Assembly: GCA_963665815.1 (NCBI GenBank)
Contig: OY762463.1
Coordinates: forward strand, 2,304,001-2,368,000
DNA length: 64,000 nt
Direction: 5' to 3'
Source: Candidatus Cloacimonadales bacterium
Lineage (GTDB): Bacteria; Cloacimonadota; Cloacimonadia; Cloacimonadales; JAIOQZ01
In this document: piece by piece, positions 26,581 to 37,292 of the stretch
How the letters are laid out: each line of letters starts with the position of its first letter
Numbering within the stretch: the first letter of the stretch is position 1
Notes under the pieces: model-generated
Seen by the model: only the letters and a program-made list of their open reading frames with translations
Told to the model about the DNA's origin: nothing
Database searches by the model: none
Made by a program: the position numbers and the translations under genes

Positions 26581-26701
26581 TAATTTTTGCGTATTTTCAT
26601 TTAATTTTTCAGCGGTATGCAAATCAATCTGTTATTGCTCATAACCGAAATATCAATACGATTTCAATGAAAGTATGTAATCCCTCATTTTAATTATAAG
26701 C

Positions 26702-26733
26702 AAAAAACCCCATCGAATTTCTCCGATGGGGCT
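26702..26733 (-). terminator. Intrinsic terminator of the atp operon
   Basis: Hairpin CCCCATCG-aatttctc-CGATGGGG followed by a U-tract on the minus strand, just after the atpC stop. Confidence 0.75.
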
Positions 26734-26756
26734 TCTTAACAATTTATGAATTAATG

Positions 26757-28572
<1,816 letters not shown>

Positions 28573-28586
28573 TTATCATTAATTTT

Positions 28587-29435
28587 CTATTGTAAAGCTT
28601 CTGCACCGGACGAAATCTCAATAATTTCTGTTGTAATTCCAGCTTGTCGTACTCTGTTATATTTAAGTGTAAGCGCTTCAATTAACTCTGCTGCGTTATC
28701 TGTTGCAGAATCCATAGCAGTCATACGAGCGCCTTGTTCTGCCGCAGATGATTCCAGCATGATTCTCCAGATTTCCACATCACCGAACTTATGAGCAAGC
28801 TCTTCGATAATAGTCTTTTCATCCGGTTCATACAGATAATCAAGTGTGCTTATTTCATCAGTTTTAAGTGGAACAATCGGGAATAACTGTTTAACAATCA
28901 CGTTCTGTTGAATAGCTGATTTGAACTCATTATACAGAACATTCACTTTTGCATATCCTTTTTCCAGGAATAAGTTAAGCAGGAATGTTCCAATTTCTTT
29001 GGAATGAGTAAAATCCATTTCATTGAACAGATACAGATATTTTTCAATCACGTTATCAGTTCTTTTCTTGATATGATCAAACCCTTTTTTTCCAAGACAG
29101 ATAATGTCGGCATCAGGGTTCTTTATTATGTATTCATCAGCTCTTCTTATAATGTTTGAGTTAAACGATCCACACAATCCACGGTCAGATGTAACAACTA
29201 ACAAAGCTTCTTTCCCATCTTTCACTTCGTCGAGTAAAGGATGACCAGAAAAAGAGTTTTTGTACTTTATACTTGCAAGCATATCATTAAGCATGTTGGC
29301 ATAAGGTCTTGCTTTCACAATCCTTTCCTGAGCTTTTCTGAGTCTTGCAGCAGCAACCATTTTCATTGCATTGGTTATTTGCTTAGTACTTTTAACACTA
29401 TCTATTCTGGTTTTAATCTCTCGTATATTAGCCAT
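28587..29435 (-). CDS. atpG: F1Fo ATP synthase gamma subunit
   Basis: ITNAMKMVAA, SDRGLCGSFN, RMTAMDSATDNA, RQAGITTEI. Confidence 0.98.
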   Translation of the reverse strand: MANIREIKTRIDSVKSTKQITNAMKMVAAARLRKAQERIVKARPYANMLNDMLASIKYKNSFSGHPLLDEVKDGKEALLVVTSDRGLCGSFNSNIIRRADEYIIKNPDADIICLGKKGFDHIKKRTDNVIEKYLYLFNEMDFTHSKEIGTFLLNLFLEKGYAKVNVLYNEFKSAIQQNVIVKQLFPIVPLKTDEISTLDYLYEPDEKTIIEELAHKFGDVEIWRIMLESSAAEQGARMTAMDSATDNAAELIEALTLKYNRVRQAGITTEIIEISSGAEALQ

Positions 29436-29455: not shown

Positions 29456-30955
29456 TTAAAACTTTTCCAGTACTTTTTCGCAGATTTCTTTCATTTTAGC
29501 ACGAACTTCATCGGTAATTTTACCTTTAACAAGCTCGTTCATGAAGTCTTTATGTTGCAGGTCAAGTGTATTGAACAGTTCTTCTTCAACTACCTTGACA
29601 TTATCTTTTTCAATTTTATCCAGCATTCCGGCATTGGCCATGAAGATAATAAAGATCTGTTTAGCTACTGGAAGCGGAGAATATTGTCCCTGTTTGAGAA
29701 TCTCAATAAGTCTCTCCCCTCTTCTGAGCTGAGCTTGTGTAGCTTTGTCAAGGTCTGAACCGAACTTGGCAAATGCTTCCAGATCCGCATATTGTGCAAG
29801 GTCAAGACGAAGCTGACCAGTTACACCCTTCATTGCTTTAATCTGAGCGCTACCACCCACACGGGATACAGAGAGACCCGCATTAATAGCAGGACGTACA
29901 CCGGAGTGGAAAAGTTTGGAACTCAGATAAATCTGACCATCTGTAATAGAGATCACATTTGTCGGGATATACGCTGTGATGTCATCTGCCTGTGTTTCAA
30001 TGATAGGCAATGCTGTAAGCGATCCGCCACCACAATCTGCACTGAGTTTGGAAGCTCTCTCAAGAAGTCTTGAGTGAAGGTAGAAAACGTCTCCCGGATA
30101 TGCTTCACGTCCCGGAGGTCTTCTGAGAAGGAGTGATAACTCACGATAAGCAACAGCGTGTTTGGAAAGATCATCATAGATAATCAGAGCATGCTGTCCT
30201 TTATCACGGAAGTACTCACCCATAGAGCAACCTGCGTAAGGTGCAAGATAGTTAAGTGATGCAGTATCTGAAGCTGATGCGGCAACAATAATTGTATAAT
30301 CCATTGCACCGTGTTTTTCCAGAGTTTTCACGATTTTAGCAATAGAAGATTGTTTCTGACCTACACCAACATACACACAGATAACATCTGTATCTTTCTG
30401 GTTTATAATTGTATCGATTGCGATAGCTGTTTTACCGGTTTGACGGTCACCGATAATAAGCTCACGCTGTCCTCTTCCGATAGGAATCATGGAGTCGATA
30501 GATTTCAGACCTGTTTGAAGAGGTTCCTTCACAGGTTGTCTCTGAATAACTCCAAGAGCTTTTCTTTCTACAGGAAGAGTATCTGTTGTTTTAATCTCAC
30601 CTTTACCGTCAATTGGCTCACCAAGCGGATTAACAACGCGTCCAAGCATTGCATCACCAACAGGAACCTGCAGAATTTTTTTGGTTCTTCTTACGATATC
30701 CCCTTCTTTAACCTTACGTGTATCACCAAAGATAATACAACCAACATTATCTTCTTCAAGGTTAAGAGCCATACCAACAACACCACCAGGAAACTCAATC
30801 ATTTCTCCAGCCATAACATTGTTCATACCATATACACGGGCAATACCATCACCAACCTGCAGAACCTTACCGGTTTCAGCAATGTCAATTTCAAATTTAT
30901 ACTGATTTATTTTCTCTTTCAGAATTGAACTGACTTCATCTGGTTGTATTTTCAT
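29456..30955 (-). CDS. atpA: F1Fo ATP synthase alpha subunit
   Basis: GDRQTGKT and [23 protein letters not shown]. Confidence 0.99.
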
Positions 30956-30977: not shown

Positions 30978-31511
30978 TTATTTTCTTAATTTCTGGAAAC
31001 GCATGAGACTGTTAAGAATTGACCCGTCAATGGTCATTGAGTCTGTTTCGGCAACAAAGCCACCGATCAGCTCCTCATGTATTTCTTTTTTCAGGATTAC
31101 AGTTCTATGCAGCACAGATTTCAAATACTCGGCAACTTTCGATTCGGATTCAGGTGTTAAATCTCTTGCAATTTTGAGATTAACAACAACTTCGTCTCTT
31201 CTTTCATGCACCATGTTCTCAATTTCATCAAATATATCAGAAATCAGAATAAATCTGTGTTTCTTTATCAGCAGTTGGAACATTGAGTTCCATTTTTCCG
31301 TATTAACTGTTCCGACTAATACATCTTTTACCAATTCGAGCCTTTTCTGCAAAGGTAATAATTGCGTGTGAAGACTCTGCTCAACTTCAGGATATTGCTT
31401 TAAAACAGCTTTCAGAGTTTCAATGTCAGTGAGTAAAGATTCCAATTGAGCAGTCTCAAAGTTTTCAACTATTGCTTTTGCATAACGTTGAGCAATTAAT
31501 CTTTGTCTCAC
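30978..31511 (-). CDS. atpH: F1Fo ATP synthase delta subunit
   Basis: [14 protein letters not shown]...IDGS; operon position. Confidence 0.9.
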
Positions 31512-31990
31512 TTATCGCCTCTTTCTGTTATAAGCTGATTGATGACACTATCATCAATTTTTGTGTTAATTTCCTTACCTATCACTTTTGAAGATAACGC
31601 TGAAACCATTGCAGCAAGATCTCCCTCAAGACTTCGCATAGCTTTTACCTTTTCAGTTTTAAGCTGAGCTTCTGTATCTTGAAGTATCTTTTTCTCCTGG
31701 TTTTTAGCCATTTTGATGATATCATTAGCCTGCTCATCAGCATCTCTCTGAGCTTTCTGCTTCAGTTTTCTGATCTCTTCAGATGAACCTTTCAGTTCTT
31801 CTTCTCTTTTATGAACCAGAACTTCAGCTTCTGCTTTTGCTTCTTTGGCTTCTTTAATATCTTCAGCTATTCGCGTTTGTCTCTCAGCAAGGAAATTCTT
31901 TATCGGTTTGTACAATAACTTGTTCAATACAAATAAGATAAGAACAAAGTTAAGTACTACGATAATAAGTGAATAATCTATACTGATCAT
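31508..31990 (-). CDS. atpF: F1Fo ATP synthase b subunit
   Basis: NFVLILFVLNKLLYKPI..FLAERQ TM anchor followed by a coiled coil. Confidence 0.93.
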   Translation of the reverse strand: MISIDYSLIIVVLNFVLILFVLNKLLYKPIKNFLAERQTRIAEDIKEAKEAKAEAEVLVHKREEELKGSSEEIRKLKQKAQRDADEQANDIIKMAKNQEKKILQDTEAQLKTEKVKAMRSLEGDLAAMVSALSSKVIGKEINTKIDDSVINQLITERGDK

Positions 31991-32041: not shown

Positions 32042-32296
32042 TTATTTTGCAAATATCAGAAGAAGTGCAATCACGAGAGAATAGATACCAGTAGACTCGG
32101 AAACTGCCTGACCAACAAGCATTGTACGAGTAATAAGACTTGCATTTTCAGGGGTTCTTGCGATACCTTCACAAGCTTTACCTGCAACAAATCCCTCACC
32201 AACTCCTGGTCCTAATGCACCAATTCCCATGCATATTCCCGCACCTAAAAGTGCAGCTGCCTTTTCAATTCCTTGAGCTAATGTAGCTGAATCCAT
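32042..32296 (-). CDS. atpE: F1Fo ATP synthase c subunit, single hairpin, Na+-type site
   Basis: GPGVGEG...ARTPE...[16 protein letters not shown]. Start moved to ATG 32296 after GGAGG. Confidence 0.95.
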
Positions 32297-32336
32297 GAAT
32301 TCCTCCAAGTTTTTTATTATTGTTTATGTTTTTGAT

Positions 32337-33092
32337 TTATTTTCCAGTAAAAATTAATAAGAATGATATTACTAGTGAATAAATAGCCGTTGATTCTGAA
32401 ACTGCTGCTCCGAGAAACATTGTTCTCATGATTGTTGAACGCTCTTCGGGAAATCTGCCAAGCATATCGCAGGCTCTTCCCGCAACGTATCCAATACCGG
32501 ATCCGGGACCTAGTGTTCCGAGTCCGATGGATAATCCTGCACCGACAAAAGCAATAGATGTTGAGATAATCTTAGCTAACTCAATACCTGCAGGTTGATT
32601 TGGTGTTGAATACACTAAAAGAAGTGATACAACAAGTGCAAATATTGATGAAGTCTGAGCAAGTGCCTGTCCAACAAGCATATTGGTCATAATTGCGTTT
32701 CCGTGTTTTGGCATTCTACCAATTGATTTACATGCCTGTCCACCGACGTATCCGGCTCCCATTGCAGGTCCTACTGCTCCAATTCCCACTGCGAGACCGG
32801 CAGCCAGTAATGCTGCAGCTTTGAACCATCCGCCTTCCGGTGTATCAAAACCACCGAAAAGGAGAAGCAATGCAATTACAAGAGAGAAGATACCTCCGGT
32901 ACCGGTAGCAGCCTGTCCAATCAGCATTGATCTGAATATTGAGTCCTGTGCCTTAGGCTGTTTCATTAATGCATAAGCAGCTTCATCTGCAATCACACCT
33001 GAACCTATACCGGTTGTAACAGATGCAATACCAACAGATAAACCGGCTCCCAAAAAACCAGCCATTCTAATTATTGAAGTTGTAATTTCCAT
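32337..33092 (-). CDS. atpE: Triplicated (three-hairpin, 6-TM) ATP synthase c subunit
   Basis: Three tandem c repeats ending GQAATGTGGIF, GQALAQTSSIF and GAAVSESTAIY, with loops KQP, RMP and RFP; lies between atpB and atpE. Confidence 0.9.
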   Translation of the reverse strand: MEITTSIIRMAGFLGAGLSVGIASVTTGIGSGVIADEAAYALMKQPKAQDSIFRSMLIGQAATGTGGIFSLVIALLLLFGGFDTPEGGWFKAAALLAAGLAVGIGAVGPAMGAGYVGGQACKSIGRMPKHGNAIMTNMLVGQALAQTSSIFALVVSLLLVYSTPNQPAGIELAKIISTSIAFVGAGLSIGLGTLGPGSGIGYVAGRACDMLGRFPEERSTIMRTMFLGAAVSESTAIYSLVISFLLIFTGK

Positions 33093-33107: not shown

Positions 33108-34043
33108 TTATTCTTCGTTAATTTCAACACCGATATAAGTCAGTGCCAGCATTGTGAAAACAAATGCCTGTACGGTTCCCACGAATACACCAAAAAACAG
33201 TCCAAGTCCAACAGGCAATATAATGAATTTTACAAGTGATGAAACCACAAGTATAATGATTGCTCCACCAAGGATGTTACCGAAAAGACGGAAAGCGATT
33301 GAAACTGCTTTAGCAAGCTCTCCAACAAGATTTAATGGGAATAAAAACCACAATGGTTCTGCATATCCTTTCAAGTAAGCCCCAAAACCTTTTACCTTGA
33401 TTGCCATGAAATGAACGACTCCAACCGCAAGAATACCCATTCCAAGAGGAACGTTCAGGTTTCTTGTAGGTTCCATAAATCCAGGAATAGGAACAAGACC
33501 AATCATGTTACAGCTCCAGATGAAGATGAAAATCGTCACCACATAAGGTGTGAAATGAAGTCTGTCTTTTCCAAGGGTCTCACCTACAAAGTCTTCGAAG
33601 AAAGTATAAATCATTTCGAACAGTATCTGTGGTTTAGACGGTCTGTCAAAAAGACTTTTCTTCACAAGCACTGCTATTAATAATAGTATAATATCAAGAA
33701 TAAGCAGCATTTTCAGAAGCTTGTAAGTACCTATCGGAGTTTTGGTAAATTTCGCAAAGAAATCATAAAGATGTTCGCTGCCGAGTATGACCTTTTCGTG
33801 ACCGTGCTCAATAACGTATTCATCTGTCTGAAAATCCTCCGAAATTCTCTGTTGAAGGTCGAATTCTGTTTGTTGATGTGTGATAACAAACTTGCCTTTT
33901 TCGCCGAACTTGCCTTCTTTATCTACACCAATAACCAGTTCCTTGGTAAAGTTACCGGAAAACCATACCAGTGCAAACTCAATGACAAGAAAAATCAGCA
34001 TCAGAGTCAGCAAGCTGTTCTTTTTCTTTGATTTGTTAGCCAT
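33108..34043 (-). CDS. atpB: F1Fo ATP synthase a subunit
   Basis: PSKPQILFE, NMIGLVP, PTRNLN, SIAFRLFGNI (essential Arg), VQAFVFTML. Confidence 0.95.
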   Translation of the reverse strand: MANKSKKKNSLLTLMLIFLVIEFALVWFSGNFTKELVIGVDKEGKFGEKGKFVITHQQTEFDLQQRISEDFQTDEYVIEHGHEKVILGSEHLYDFFAKFTKTPIGTYKLLKMLLILDIILLLIAVLVKKSLFDRPSKPQILFEMIYTFFEDFVGETLGKDRLHFTPYVVTIFIFIWSCNMIGLVPIPGFMEPTRNLNVPLGMGILAVGVVHFMAIKVKGFGAYLKGYAEPLWFLFPLNLVGELAKAVSIAFRLFGNILGGAIIILVVSSLVKFIILPVGLGLFFGVFVGTVQAFVFTMLALTYIGVEINEE

Positions 34044-34431
34044 TTGATCCTCTATAGTATTTATTATTTTTAAACTGACGGTAAAACTCGTAGATGTATA
34101 TAATTATCTGTGAAGATAAAAGCCCGGCTCCAAAAACCATAATATTGGGTTTCATAAATTTAACGATTATTGCCGAGTACACTGCAAGAAACAGAAAGCG
34201 AAGAAAATACCCTTTTGATGATCTTTTCTTCGTACCTGTAATTCCAAGCTGCAGGCTTCTATATACATCGAAAGCTAACCAAAGGAAAAAAATCAGGCTA
34301 CCCAGACTACCAGTAATCCAGGCTAACGACATTTTAATATCGAATGGTATTGCTATTGTCGCAACTATGATTGTCAAGAAATTAATTCCCGCAATTGTAA
34401 TAATGTATTTTTTGTTTCGCGTTGAAAGCAT
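34036..34431 (-). CDS. atpI: ATP synthase protein I
   Basis: Four-TM small protein with GYFLRF, immediately upstream of atpB. Confidence 0.75.
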   Translation of the reverse strand: MLSTRNKKYIITIAGINFLTIIVATIAIPFDIKMSLAWITGSLGSLIFFLWLAFDVYRSLQLGITGTKKRSSKGYFLRFLFLAVYSAIIVKFMKPNIMVFGAGLLSSQIIIYIYEFYRQFKNNKYYRGSNG

Positions 34432-34501: not shown

Positions 34502-35074
34502 TTATCTATTTTGTTTGTCAAACTTTATTAATATTGCAGGATCAATTTTTTCACCTGACTCTATTATCTCAAAGTGAAGATGAGGATCTGTACTCTTTCC
34601 AGTATTGCCTACAAGCGCAATTACGTCATCAATATACACATACTCTTTTAACTTTACAAACACTTTTGACGCATGTGCATATTTTGTTTTATATCCGTTC
34701 AAGTGATCAATTACAAGATAATTTCCATAAATTTCATCATAACCTTTATCAACAACAACCCCCACTGCAGATGGAACTATCTTTGTTCCTGTAACCGCAG
34801 CTAAATCAATTCCTTTATGTATATCGGAGAATCGCTGACTGACGACATACTTCCCGTAAACAGGAACCTGACGGGGAATACTGTCACTATAGTCATTATA
34901 ACGTTTCTTACCTGATCCGGATTTATTCGATACTGTACTTACCTTAAAATTTTCCAACTCTCCTGTAAGTTGAACAATCTCTGCTTTCTGTTTGCCGACA
35001 AGGCTGAACTGAAAATAGACTGCCCCAATCAGTAATACAATAATTAAGAGAAGTCCTGCCAGTATAACTTTCAT
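34502..35074 (-). CDS. M23 family metallopeptidase with N-terminal membrane anchor
   Basis: HKGIDLA, YGNYLVIDH, YAH and GNTGKSTDPHLHFEI. Confidence 0.92.
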   Translation of the reverse strand: MKVILAGLLLIIVLLIGAVYFQFSLVGKQKAEIVQLTGELENFKVSTVSNKSGSGKKRYNDYSDSIPRQVPVYGKYVVSQRFSDIHKGIDLAAVTGTKIVPSAVGVVVDKGYDEIYGNYLVIDHLNGYKTKYAHASKVFVKLKEYVYIDDVIALVGNTGKSTDPHLHFEIIESGEKIDPAILIKFDKQNR

Positions 35075-35075
35075 A

Positions 35076-35924
35076 TCACTTCAAAAGTTTTTTCAGAAGC
35101 TGTATTCTCTCGTCTTCATTCTTATAGAAGAATGATATTTTGCCTTTGCTGTTCTTGTCAGCAATTTTTACTTTGAATCCAAAGTTCTTCTTAAGTTGAA
35201 GTTCCATCTCACCTAGAACAACTTTTTTCCCTTCAGGTACTTTAGGAAGCTCAGTTTTGTCAGGAGATGCCAGAAATTCTTTTGCTGCTTTCTCGGTTTT
35301 CCTTACAGACAGCTCATTCTTGATAATAAAATCTGAAAATTCAACCTGATTCTCTTCCGGTAACGTAAGTATTGCTCTGGCATGACCTGATGATAGTTTC
35401 TGCCCTCTGACAAGCTCCCTGACCTCAGGATGTAGCTTTAAAAGCCTGAGAGAATTAGTTACAGTCGCTCTGTCTTTACCAATGATTTCCGATATCTGGG
35501 CATGAGTTAAAGAGAATTCCTCATGAAGCTGCATATATGCCTCTGCCTCATCCATAGAGTTCAAATTCTCTCGCTGTATGTTCTCAATAATTGCAAATTG
35601 CAAAAGTTGTTTCTTAGATACACTTCTTATTATCACAGGAATCTCACTGAAGCCTGCCAGCTTGGAAGCTTCCAGTCTTCGTTCTCCCGCAATCAGTTCA
35701 TATTGTGAATTCTCACACTTAGAAACGATTATCGGCTGAATAAGCCCGTTTTCTTTTAATGACTGTGCCAGTTCCTGAAGTTTTACCTGATCGAAAACTT
35801 TTCTCGGCTGATATCTGTTGGGTCTTATTTTACTTACATCAATTGTTGTAATCCCGGTTGTTCTGTCCGTGGATTCCGGCCCCGATTTTATCAGAGCATC
35901 AAGTCCTCTTCCTAATCTACTCAT
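35076..35924 (-). CDS. parB: Chromosome partitioning protein ParB
   Basis: LGRGLDALI, PNRYQPRK, IAGERRL, IENIQRENL, HTH region, GHARA. Confidence 0.96.
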   Translation of the reverse strand: MSRLGRGLDALIKSGPESTDRTTGITTIDVSKIRPNRYQPRKVFDQVKLQELAQSLKENGLIQPIIVSKCENSQYELIAGERRLEASKLAGFSEIPVIIRSVSKKQLLQFAIIENIQRENLNSMDEAEAYMQLHEEFSLTHAQISEIIGKDRATVTNSLRLLKLHPEVRELVRGQKLSSGHARAILTLPEENQVEFSDFIIKNELSVRKTEKAAKEFLASPDKTELPKVPEGKKVVLGEMELQLKKNFGFKVKIADKNSKGKISFFYKNEDERIQLLKKLLK

Positions 35925-36679
35925 CTTTTTATCACTTCCGCCGCAAATTGCAAATAATTGCGCGCGCCTTTGGATGTTATATCATAATGAAAAATTGATT
36001 TACCAAAACTCGGTGCTTCACTGAGCTTTACATTTCTATGTATAATTGTGTTAAATACTTTTTCCCTGAAATAGCGTCTTACTTCTTTTGCTACCTGATT
36101 TGAGAGATTTAGTCTTTTATCATACATTGTAAGCAGAACTCCCAGAATATTCAGGTCAGGATTAAGATTTTTCTGAATAAGATTTACAGTATTTAAGAGC
36201 TGACTTACTCCCTCAAGAGCAAAGTACTCACACTGAATAGGTATAAGTACATCTGTACACGCAGTAAGAGCATTAACCGTAAGTAACCCGAGAGAAGGAG
36301 GACAATCAATGATAACATAATCATATTTGTCATTAATGCTCTCTAATGCTTTTTTTAGCTTATGTTCCCTTGAGAATTCTTTTACAAGTTCTATTTCTGC
36401 ACCTGTAAGGTCTATATTGCTTGGCGCTAAGTCAAGATGTTCTATATATGAAGGAACAATAACGTCCTCAATGTTAACTTTTTTAACCAGTGCATCATAA
36501 ATATGTATCTTCAGGTTAGAAGTATCTACACCCAACCCGCTAGATGCATTACCCTGAGGATCAAAATCAATCAACAGGGTTCGTTTTTCATGAATTCCCA
36601 GAGCTGCTGCAAGATTGACTGAGGTAGTAGTTTTACCAACTCCCCCCTTTTGATTCACAACAGTTATGATTTTTTTCAT
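35921..36679 (-). CDS. parA: Chromosome partitioning ATPase ParA/Soj
   Basis: NQKGGVGKTT deviant Walker A, DFDPQGN, IDCPPSLG, EAPSFG. Confidence 0.96.
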   Translation of the reverse strand: MKKIITVVNQKGGVGKTTTSVNLAAALGIHEKRTLLIDFDPQGNASSGLGVDTSNLKIHIYDALVKKVNIEDVIVPSYIEHLDLAPSNIDLTGAEIELVKEFSREHKLKKALESINDKYDYVIIDCPPSLGLLTVNALTACTDVLIPIQCEYFALEGVSQLLNTVNLIQKNLNPDLNILGVLLTMYDKRLNLSNQVAKEVRRYFREKVFNTIIHRNVKLSEAPSFGKSIFHYDITSKGARNYLQFAAEVIKR

Positions 36680-36680
36680 T

Positions 36681-37292
36681 CTATTTAAATACCTTTATAA
36701 GTTTTCTGGTTCCGATAGCCGGATGGCTGACATCAATAATCTTTTTCTTCTTGAAAATGTCAGTATCATCATGATTCTCTGATTTATATAAAATCATGCA
36801 ACCATTGTTTTTAAGTATCCTCATAAGTACTTTTTTGAACTGTGGAAGGATTCTTACGGATCGACATACAATAACATCAAAAAGACCTTCCCATTCATCA
36901 ACAGGACACTCTTCTAATCTGTACGAAACAGGAAAACATGAATCTAAGTCAAGATTTTTGACAATTTTTTTCAGGCATTCTATCTTCTTCTTTCTGGAAT
37001 CAAGCAATACAACTTCAGAGTCGGGATACATAATACTCAATGGTATACCCGGAAGCCCACCGCCAGTACCGAAATCAAGAATAGTTTTTCCTGCAAAATT
37101 ATAATGATCTACAGAGAGCAGAGAATCCATTATATGAATTGTCCATATTTTATCAGGATTTGTTTTACGTGAAACAAGGTTAACCTTCTGATTTTCCTCA
37201 AGCAGTAATTCATGATATCTCTCTATGAGAGAATATTTTCGTTCGTCAGAAAATCTTTCTGAATAGAATTCAGTAAATACTTTTTTAGACAT
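36681..37292 (-). CDS. rsmG: 16S rRNA m7G527 methyltransferase RsmG
   Basis: N.KVNLVS, HIMDSL, LDFGTGGGLPGIPL, LDSRKKK; canonical position upstream of parA. Confidence 0.92.
   Translation of the reverse strand: MSKKVFTEFYSERFSDERKYSLIERYHELLLEENQKVNLVSRKTNPDKIWTIHIMDSLLSVDHYNFAGKTILDFGTGGGLPGIPLSIMYPDSEVVLLDSRKKKIECLKKIVKNLDLDSCFPVSYRLEECPVDEWEGLFDVIVCRSVRILPQFKKVLMRILKNNGCMILYKSENHDDTDIFKKKKIIDVSHPAIGTRKLIKVFK
37161..37176. promoter_or_regulatory. parS-like ParB-binding palindrome inside rsmG
   Basis: TGTTTTACGTGAAACA, a 15/16 match to the consensus TGTTTCACGTGAAACA. Confidence 0.65.

Follow-up and report, generated by a model that had tools for sequence, protein, structure and literature searches.

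A three-hairpin c subunit with one glutamate, encoded beside a Na+-type c subunit in the F1Fo ATP synthase operon of a Candidatus Cloacimonadales bacterium

The number of ion sites in a c-ring fixes the ion cost of ATP, a quantity that is central near the thermodynamic limit of life. We analyzed a 64,000-nucleotide stretch of the genome of a Candidatus Cloacimonadales bacterium (assembly GCA_963665815.1, contig OY762463.1, positions 2,304,001 to 2,368,000), called the window below, that carries a canonical and complete F1Fo ATP synthase operon on its minus strand in the order atpI-B-E1-E2-F-H-A-G-D-C. Two c-type genes lie between atpB (33108..34043) and atpF (31508..31990). The first, atpE1 (32337..33092), encodes a 251-amino acid (aa) protein composed of three fused c-subunit hairpins, of which only the last carries a carboxylate. 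The second, atpE2 (32042..32296), encodes an ordinary single-hairpin c subunit with the two-carboxylate motif of Na+ binding. Sequence, structural models, and analogy with Acetobacterium woodii together make it probable that the two proteins form one heteromeric c-ring, as in that bacterium, with a lowered Na+/ATP ratio.

A c subunit with three hairpins and one carboxylate

The hidden Markov model (HMM) for ATP-synt_C (Pfam PF00137) matches the atpE1 product in three stretches (E 2.1e-41; total 140.4 bits versus a cut-off of 24), the best of which spans model positions 1 to 60 of 60, and three NCBIfam equivalogs for F0F1 subunit C score above their cut-offs. The corresponding AlphaFold2 model consists of six long transmembrane helices (predicted local distance difference test score, or pLDDT, 96.4; predicted template modeling score, or pTM, 0.91; 85-row alignment). 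These results agree with the original prediction, made from the DNA letters alone, that three c hairpins are fused in this protein.

When the hairpins are aligned to the short c subunit and numbered as in Ilyobacter tartaricus and Fusobacterium nucleatum, the residues first named for positions 32, 65 to 67, and 70 of each hairpin prove exact. Hairpin 1 (residues 1-85; 32838..33092) has no carboxylate and carries S32, G65, T66, and F70 (S31, G64, and F69 of the protein for positions 32, 65, and 70). Hairpin 2 (residues 86-170; 32583..32837) also lacks a carboxylate and carries A32, Q65, T66, and F70 (A113, Q146, and F151). Hairpin 3 (residues 171-251; 32337..32582) carries I32 (I200), V63, E65, S66, T67, and Y70, the last four being E233, S234, T235, and Y238, and E233 (codon 32394..32396) is the lone carboxylate of the protein, as had been claimed. 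The further proposal that the triple subunit would offer at most one site needs a qualification. The single glutamate is present, but its Na+ site appears to be incomplete because the position-32 ligand of helix 1 is replaced by I200.

Pairwise identity among the three hairpins is 35-37%, and their identity to the short c subunit is 40-56%. All three have small residues in the helix-1 packing motif as well as an (R/K)-x-P cytoplasmic loop. Although the F-type c family is characterized by one carboxylate per hairpin, atpE1 has one in hairpin 3 only, and we regard its product, as judged from these residues, as a divergent and apparently partly ion-blind member of that family.

Two other classes were considered and rejected. 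The best NCBIfam V-type K model gives 63.4 bits versus a cut-off of 211, all neighboring genes are F-type, and the rest of the genome yielded no V_ATPase-type c, which sets aside a V/A-type proteolipid. N-ATPase (alternate F1Fo) operons lack a delta subunit, and the window operon has an OSCP/delta gene. Assessed by the TIGR03322 and TIGR03306 cut-offs, the protein falls outside this class, since TIGR03322 reaches 127.5 bits versus 130.85 even when the three hairpins are summed; altF1_A reaches 100.2 bits versus a cut-off of 302.1.

The adjoining single-hairpin c subunit carries a Na+ motif

The short c open reading frame (ORF) extends for 88 aa from a TTG codon (32042..32308) and contains one ATP-synt_C stretch (E 4.6e-18); NCBIfam likewise assigns its product to F0F1 subunit C models. 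From the sequence, the likelier start is the ATG at 32296, giving 84 aa, and a GGAGG is located five bases ahead of this codon. The encoded ligand set is E32, V63, E65, S66, T67, and Y70. A passage of a study on F. nucleatum describes a Na+ site made of E32 and E65 of one subunit together with S66 and the V63 carbonyl of its neighbor, where T67 holds a water molecule and Y70 bonds E65 (PMC3692424). Because the ligands are split across two subunits, the sites lie between hairpins. The alignment thus confirms that a normal Na+-type c subunit adjoins the fused one.

This ligand set is common to the Na+-binding c11 rings of F. nucleatum and I. tartaricus (3ZK1, 1YCE), with E32 as in F. nucleatum. 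Hairpin 3 of atpE1 also matches the c subunits of these two species (E 2.8e-16 and 7.3e-15, respectively). However, those rings are homomeric and have as many sites as hairpins, whereas the window encodes two c types.

The fused c gene is conserved in Cloacimonadota with zero to three glutamates

Among 151 Cloacimonadota genomes, the window genome included, 81 gave a match to the fused c subunit. Full three-hairpin ORFs account for 77 of these, and the remainder comprises two weak matches in family f2, one two-hairpin ORF (G081), and one ORF cut by a contig end (G145). All families have the fused gene except f2 (the two weak matches among 69 genomes) and f5 (0 of 2); in f7, 5 of 6 genomes are positive. 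A genome of the same genus as that of the window (G001) carries a 98% identical copy. A word-indexed search returned 484 relatives, and 113 of the best 120 are 238 to 257 aa long and 54 to 98% identical to the window protein. Many relatives are named by their sources as Cloacimonadota or Cloacimonetes "ATP synthase F0 subunit C", a bare label that the three-hairpin assignment corrects.

The surroundings of the gene are conserved as well. An a subunit with the arginine motif lies directly 5′ of the fused c gene in 76 of 77 loci, and a single-hairpin c gene lies directly 3′ on the same strand in 75. The single c genes of the phylum have E65, S66, T67, and Y70 in 77 of 77 cases, with E at position 32 in 73 and Q in 4; one further entry in this tally is the last hairpin of the two-hairpin G081 protein.

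The number of position-65 glutamates in the fused protein varies. Of the 77 orthologs, 8 have three glutamates, 31 have two, 30 have one, and 8 have none. Hairpin 2 nearly always has Q, the exceptions with E being confined to part of f7 and f13, and hairpins 1 and 3 vary between E and Q or G. A set of 114 relatives gives a matching picture. At position 65, hairpin 1 has E in 61 proteins, Q in 41, and G in the other 12; hairpin 2 has Q in 113; and hairpin 3 has E in 94 and Q in 20, with I at its position 32 in 109. Most deep lineages have the pattern E-x-E, and the clade of the window (f1 and part of f4) has x-x-E. We built a tree of the 77 orthologs from alignment columns other than the six site columns (quick method, midpoint root, many open forks). 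It requires at least 4 changes between E and non-E in hairpin 1, 3 in hairpin 2, and 6 in hairpin 3. These patterns suggest repeated changes in the number of glutamates within a single phylum, over the range from 3 down to 0.

Purifying selection acts on all three hairpins. Over 56 within-genus pairs, the median ratio of nonsynonymous to synonymous substitution rates (dN/dS; Nei-Gojobori method) is 0.026 for hairpin 1 and 0.040 for both hairpin 2 and hairpin 3, and no value exceeds 0.17, such that carboxylate-free hairpins are as constrained as a working subunit. An artifact of assembly or a pseudogene can be dismissed given the open frame, the 98% identical copy in the same genus, the orthologs in 77 of 151 genomes, and dN/dS values far below 1, which removes one of the grounds named at the outset for refuting the hybrid rotor. 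In the zero-site genus g45 (six complete genomes of ~1.6 Mb), dN/dS ranges from 0.015 to 0.062. In the five zero-site genomes that were checked, no c hairpins were found beyond the fused three and the single c. Because a protein with zero carboxylates cannot make a working ring alone, the single c subunit would have to supply the sites in these organisms. The fact that the zero-site fused c is kept under selection is the strongest genetic argument for joint function with the single c subunit.

The two-hairpin form in G081 (family f13; L082, C53:760-1131) is a 164-aa protein made of a first and a last hairpin, both with a glutamate. It apparently derives from the three-hairpin gene by loss of the middle hairpin, and a near-identical representative protein (P0183) is known.

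The F-type c pair is missing from family f2, which with 69 genomes is the largest one sampled from the same order. A two-hairpin c gene was found in 16 of 16 f2 genomes searched (loci L091-L093), and in the single locus examined it adjoins a V_ATPase_I gene. On the basis of this neighbor, f2 seems to use a V/A-type enzyme, which would mean that the type of rotary ATPase has been replaced within the order.

The closest characterized relative is the c1 subunit of A. woodii

A Foldseek search of the PDB with the atpE1 model returned A. woodii c1 (4BEM_J) as the top match (E 3.4e-8; root mean square deviation 1.4 Å over 162 columns; 41% identity), followed by V-type c and K subunits. No solved chain in this search spans all three hairpins (best query-length TM-score 0.61). 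A sequence search of solved structures also ranked 4BEM_J first (E 2.2e-27), with hairpins 1-2 placed on c1 hairpins 1-2, followed by the c subunit of F. nucleatum, A. woodii c2, and the c subunit of I. tartaricus; it returned no V/A-type chain at E 1e-5.

The likeness to A. woodii extends to several features. In both operons, a fused multi-hairpin c gene directly precedes a single Na+-type c gene in the order atpI-atpB-atpE1-atpE2-atpF. That the gene order is the same had been noticed at the outset; the operon annotation confirms it, and the top rank of c1 in sequence and fold strengthens the comparison. Both proteins have a glutamine in place of an ion-binding glutamate (in hairpin 2 of c1, and as Q146 in the window protein), and both have F at position 70 of the first hairpin and Y in the last. 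Alignments indicate that c1 has the pattern of a first plus a last hairpin, namely E..F and then Q..Y. A passage of PMC7911925 likewise places an E-to-Q change in the second hairpin of A. woodii c1 and describes the operon and c1 of Clostridium aceticum. According to the relevant text of PMC9171764, the A. woodii ring contains nine single-hairpin c subunits and one c1, with ten sites, and a passage of PMC5662883 gives 3.3 Na+ per ATP for this enzyme.

The differences are equally clear. The window protein has three hairpins, six helices, and 251 aa, whereas A. woodii c1 has two hairpins, four helices, and a mass of about 18 kDa. Two adjacent positions are uncharged in the former and one in the latter. 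The surviving glutamate is in the last hairpin of the window protein, without a position-32 ligand, and in the first hairpin of c1. The partner c subunit has the two-carboxylate motif with E32 in the window and Q32 in A. woodii. Finally, the fused c subunits of Cloacimonadota have zero to three glutamates across the phylum and, unlike A. woodii c1, are known from genes alone.

Fused hairpins with fewer sites than hairpins also occur in archaeal A-type proteolipids and in V-type c and K subunits. A three-hairpin proteolipid is known from Methanocaldococcus jannaschii and a 13-hairpin one from Methanopyrus kandleri. The window operon, in contrast to those of archaeal A-type and V-type enzymes, is F-type throughout (a, b, delta, alpha, gamma, beta, and epsilon). 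A passage of PMC9171764 lists archaeal c subunits with 1, 2, 3, or 13 hairpins and fewer ion-translocating residues. No paper on a three-hairpin F-type c subunit was found, and "not described" is thus meant with respect to the searchable literature, where the papers retrieved deal with A. woodii, C. aceticum, and E. limosum or with unrelated subjects. Of the 15 passages of PMC9324843 that match the subject of ATP synthase c subunits, the 12 listed do not discuss those of Cloacimonadota.

We also predicted the fused and single c subunits as a two-chain complex, which scored 0.60 compared with 0.01 for the best of three controls. In calibration, 58 of 80 solved complexes passed the mark, as did 2 of 110 mismatched pairs; among those passing, only 7 of the 80 solved complexes but both mismatches scored 0.60 or lower. 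Contacts are at least 96% consistent between runs, with a partner pLDDT of at least 84. This prediction lends weak support to pairing of the fused and single c subunits. The score may reflect mere likeness to 4BEM, because this similar complex has already been solved.

A mixed c-ring and its alternatives

The arrangement that we consider probable is one in which the fused subunit joins many atpE2 copies in the c-ring of a Na+-coupled F1Fo ATP synthase. Each ring would contain one or a few three-hairpin blocks, and most positions would be filled by the 84-aa c subunit. Each fused copy would occupy three ring positions while providing one glutamate (E233), whose helix-1 ligand is missing, and the uncharged G64 and Q146 positions would pass subunit a carrying no ion. 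If these positions pass the arginine of subunit a ion-free, the same rotation would be paid for with fewer ions. Because ion sites are fewer than hairpins, Na+/ATP would fall below that of an equally large homomeric ring. For example, a ring of 11 hairpins, as in the closest solved rings, would have 9 sites with one fused copy, corresponding to 3.0 rather than 3.7 Na+ per ATP. In this scheme we infer the presence of the fused subunit in the ring, its copy number, the ring size, the ion ratio, and the physiological direction.

Signals for translation bear on the relative amounts of the two proteins. A GGAGG lies 5′ of the single c gene in 71 of 75 loci and 5′ of the fused gene in 13 of 75, and predicted anti-Shine-Dalgarno pairing, computed with a generic anti-Shine-Dalgarno sequence, is stronger for the single c gene than for the fused gene in 64 of 75. 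This pattern fits a ring with the single c as the majority component and the fused c as a minority.

Several observations weigh against a mixed ring. A search of sequencing runs listed three DNA runs of one study that contain the stretch and no RNA run. We know of no characterized F-type ring with two consecutive uncharged positions, let alone the three found in relatives. With I rather than Q or E at position 32, the E233 site may be unable to work as a Na+ site. The values assumed above for ring size and copy number are guesses, and the Shine-Dalgarno argument is indirect and depends on a generic sequence. Moreover, the pairing of the genes is not absolute, as 2 of 77 loci lack a single c after the fused gene. 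In G141 (L074, C174), atpA comes next after the fused c (E-x-x), without an intervening single c, atpF, or atpH, and in G021 (L072, C49), unrelated ORFs lie 3′ of the fused gene. Both genomes have c-like matches on other contigs, that of G021 with internal stop codons, and these two loci are split or rearranged atp operons.

These two loci are also what might be expected if the genes served homomeric rotors instead, with a fused-only ring (for example, four copies with 12 hairpins and 4 sites) or a single-c ring formed according to conditions. The cell would then have a choice of two gear ratios in place of a single mixed ring. The window protein has one glutamate and 69 of the 77 relatives have one to three, so that fused subunits could in principle carry ions by themselves. 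However, 28-40 bases separate atpE1 from atpE2 within a single operon, and this gap contains no terminator-like site, which leaves scant room for separate control. The zero-site orthologs (8 of 77), which are under purifying selection, would be incapable of making a working ring alone. The sole characterized relative, A. woodii c1, is part of a mixed ring according to the cited text of PMC9171764. We consider separate homomeric rotors unlikely.

The same zero-site orthologs could be accommodated if the fused subunit is an assembly or size-setting factor that nucleates or templates the ring, or that aids Fo biogenesis, and is absent from or only transient in the mature rotor. Total loss of carboxylates, as tolerated in some lineages, would be expected of a protein with no task in ion transport, and the amount of the fused protein is probably below that of the single c. 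Several features speak for a ring subunit instead. All three hairpins have the full c architecture (Pfam match, packing motif, and (R/K)-x-P loop), and dN/dS indicates that they are constrained like a working subunit. The operon already has an atpI-like assembly gene, and the homolog c1 is a ring subunit in the 4BEM crystal. We therefore give a dedicated assembly role only a small chance.

A third possibility concerns the direction of the enzyme. The fused subunit might reside in the ring so that a low ion/ATP ratio serves ATP hydrolysis, with the enzyme of a fermenting cell acting like a V-ATPase to pump Na+ against a steep gradient. Established chemiosmotic reasoning holds that hydrolysis can sustain a steeper gradient when fewer ions are moved per ATP, and f2, a family of the same order, has a V-type enzyme in place of the F-type one. 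On the other hand, the genome has its own candidates for primary Na+ pumps, namely one OAD_beta decarboxylase subunit, two Rnf/Nqr-type clusters, and one membrane pyrophosphatase, which by annotation are the usual partners of a Na+-driven synthase in a Na+ cycle. Enzymes with V-type c subunits can also synthesize ATP, as a passage of PMC9171764 states. A role mainly as an ATP-driven pump thus seems improbable, and since it touches the direction only, it would be compatible with a mixed ring.

Related multi-hairpin c genes occur in other phyla

An exhaustive search of 1.84 billion representative proteins yielded 1573 matches at E ≤0.001, of which 73 reach E ≤1e-30. The best 150 include 149 new proteins, which have two (27), three (50), four (64), five (4), or seven to fourteen (4) hairpins as counted by an HMM-column parse, a set that includes fragments and may mix F-type with A/V-type proteins. 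Many of the 149 have fewer glutamates or aspartates than hairpins.

Two subsets within P0180-P0274 are of note in their own right. Approximately 43 representative clusters are four-hairpin c subunits of roughly 318 aa with E, Q, E, and D/E at position 65, a pattern corresponding to three sites of four. The proteins of 7, 8, 11, and 14 hairpins keep all of their sites.

A scan of species genomes with one four-hairpin protein yielded seven loci. In six of these (L084-L089), the fused c gene adjoins a single c gene and has F-type neighbors (checked by Pfam in L087 and L088), whereas the seventh (L090) is cut at the match and its neighbors are unreadable. The titles of the corresponding metagenome-assembled genomes are Desulfosudaceae, Desulfobacteraceae (2), Planctomycetales, Hydrogenedentota, and Nitrospirales. 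The gene order is atpB, fused c, single c, and atpF in five of the six loci, and in L084 the fused gene is located ahead of an atpI-like gene. The fused c subunits from Desulfobacterota, Planctomycetota, Hydrogenedentota, and Nitrospirota have three to five hairpins and reside in F-type operons like the window protein; no publication on them was found in the searchable literature. Their signatures follow hairpin position as in Cloacimonadota, with E..T..F in the first, Q-T-P..F in the inner, and E/Q-S-T..Y in the last hairpin. They differ in having two or three inner hairpins and in being 35-50% identical to the window protein.

On a weakly supported FastTree phylogeny of 179 hairpins (78 columns), the four classes (first, inner, last, and single) require 25 changes compared with a mean of 94.4 for shuffled labels, and none of 200 shuffles gave a value as low. 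Hairpins thus cluster by position and not by protein. Because of this grouping, the first-inner-last architecture is suggested to be common to several phyla rather than an invention of Cloacimonadota. The original prediction of a new hybrid rotor is accordingly narrowed. The fused gene is as described, but its one-site state is one point in a series from 0 to 3 sites, and its architecture is found in other phyla too.

If the fused subunit were a stoichiometric part of the rotor, the series of three, two, one, and zero sites could represent stepwise re-gearing of Na+/ATP, a proposition to which we give about even chances. To our knowledge, A. woodii, whose ring has one blind position in eleven, provides the only bacterial design with fewer sites than hairpins that has been characterized so far. 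Re-gearing would imply an F-type motor that runs across two or three consecutive ion-blind positions, as Cloacimonadota rotors with that many adjacent blind positions would be expected if the fused c is in the ring. It would also imply a family of "gear blocks" with two to five hairpins, hitherto undescribed, in several anaerobic phyla. In its boldest form, the number of blocks per ring would vary, yielding a tunable gear. Cloacimonadota are abundant in anaerobic digesters and sediments. With the fused c in the ring, relatives having zero to three sites on the same scaffold would constitute a natural series for testing how large an uncharged gap is tolerated, and this series could reveal whether ion/ATP is matched to energy-poor, syntrophic, or fermentative lifestyles.

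Operon and genome context

The remaining genes of the operon are as expected for an F-type enzyme, and all are on the minus strand. The first encodes an atpI-like small membrane protein (34036..34431; Pfam ATP-synt_I, E 2.5e-5) whose 25.0 bits fall marginally below the cut-off of 25.1 and which has no NCBIfam match. An atpI-like gene is also found 5′ of atpB in A. woodii and C. aceticum, according to a passage of PMC7911925. The atpB product (Fo subunit a, 311 aa) matches ATP-synt_A (E 3.1e-45) over residues 112-304 and contains the arginine motif R-x-F-G-N. Downstream of the c genes lie atpF (subunit b; ATP-synt_B, E 1.2e-23), atpH (subunit delta; 30978..31511; OSCP, E 1.4e-31), atpA (F1 alpha; 29456..30955; ATP-synt_ab, E 6.7e-85, plus N- and C-terminal domains), atpG (F1 gamma; 28587..29435; ATP-synt, E 4.9e-95), atpD (F1 beta; 27160..28557; ATP-synt_ab, E 1.2e-71), and atpC (F1 epsilon; 26757..27167; ATP-synt_DE_N, E 2.2e-18, plus ATP-synt_DE). 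A terminator-like hairpin with 17 pairs and a T run (26701..26738, minus strand) directly 3′ of atpC is likely the end of the operon. Six terminator-like sites occur across the region versus a shuffled expectation of 6.0, so the assignment of this one is supported solely by its length and position.

The atpB product has an N-terminal extension of ~100 aa ahead of the ATP-synt_A match, comprising one predicted hydrophobic stretch followed by a polar segment. Across the phylum, the a-subunit ORFs upstream of the fused gene are 251-471 aa long (74 complete ORFs, taken from the longest start), with one group at ~420-470 aa.

The genome is a single contig of 3.96 Mb that is 98.7% complete. No ATP-synt_C hairpin was found elsewhere in it, and its ATP-synt_ab matches comprise one alpha/beta pair and two other proteins of 443 and 430 aa, which are taken to be FliI-like and Rho-like by length only. 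Because there is no other c hairpin and one F1 alpha/beta pair, the window operon appears to encode the only rotary ATPase of the cell.

One of the Rnf/Nqr-type clusters (G000:C1:2372567-2373739) is located ~4.6 kb past the end of the window, ~35 kb from atpI (~2338431), and on the other strand. Immediately 5′ of the operon and on the same strand (34502-36679) lie a Peptidase_M23 protein (Pfam E 7e-29) and parB- and parA-like ORFs, the latter two judged by the look of their sequences. An rsmG-like methyltransferase ORF follows at 36681-37292, and the neighborhood is of an origin-proximal type.

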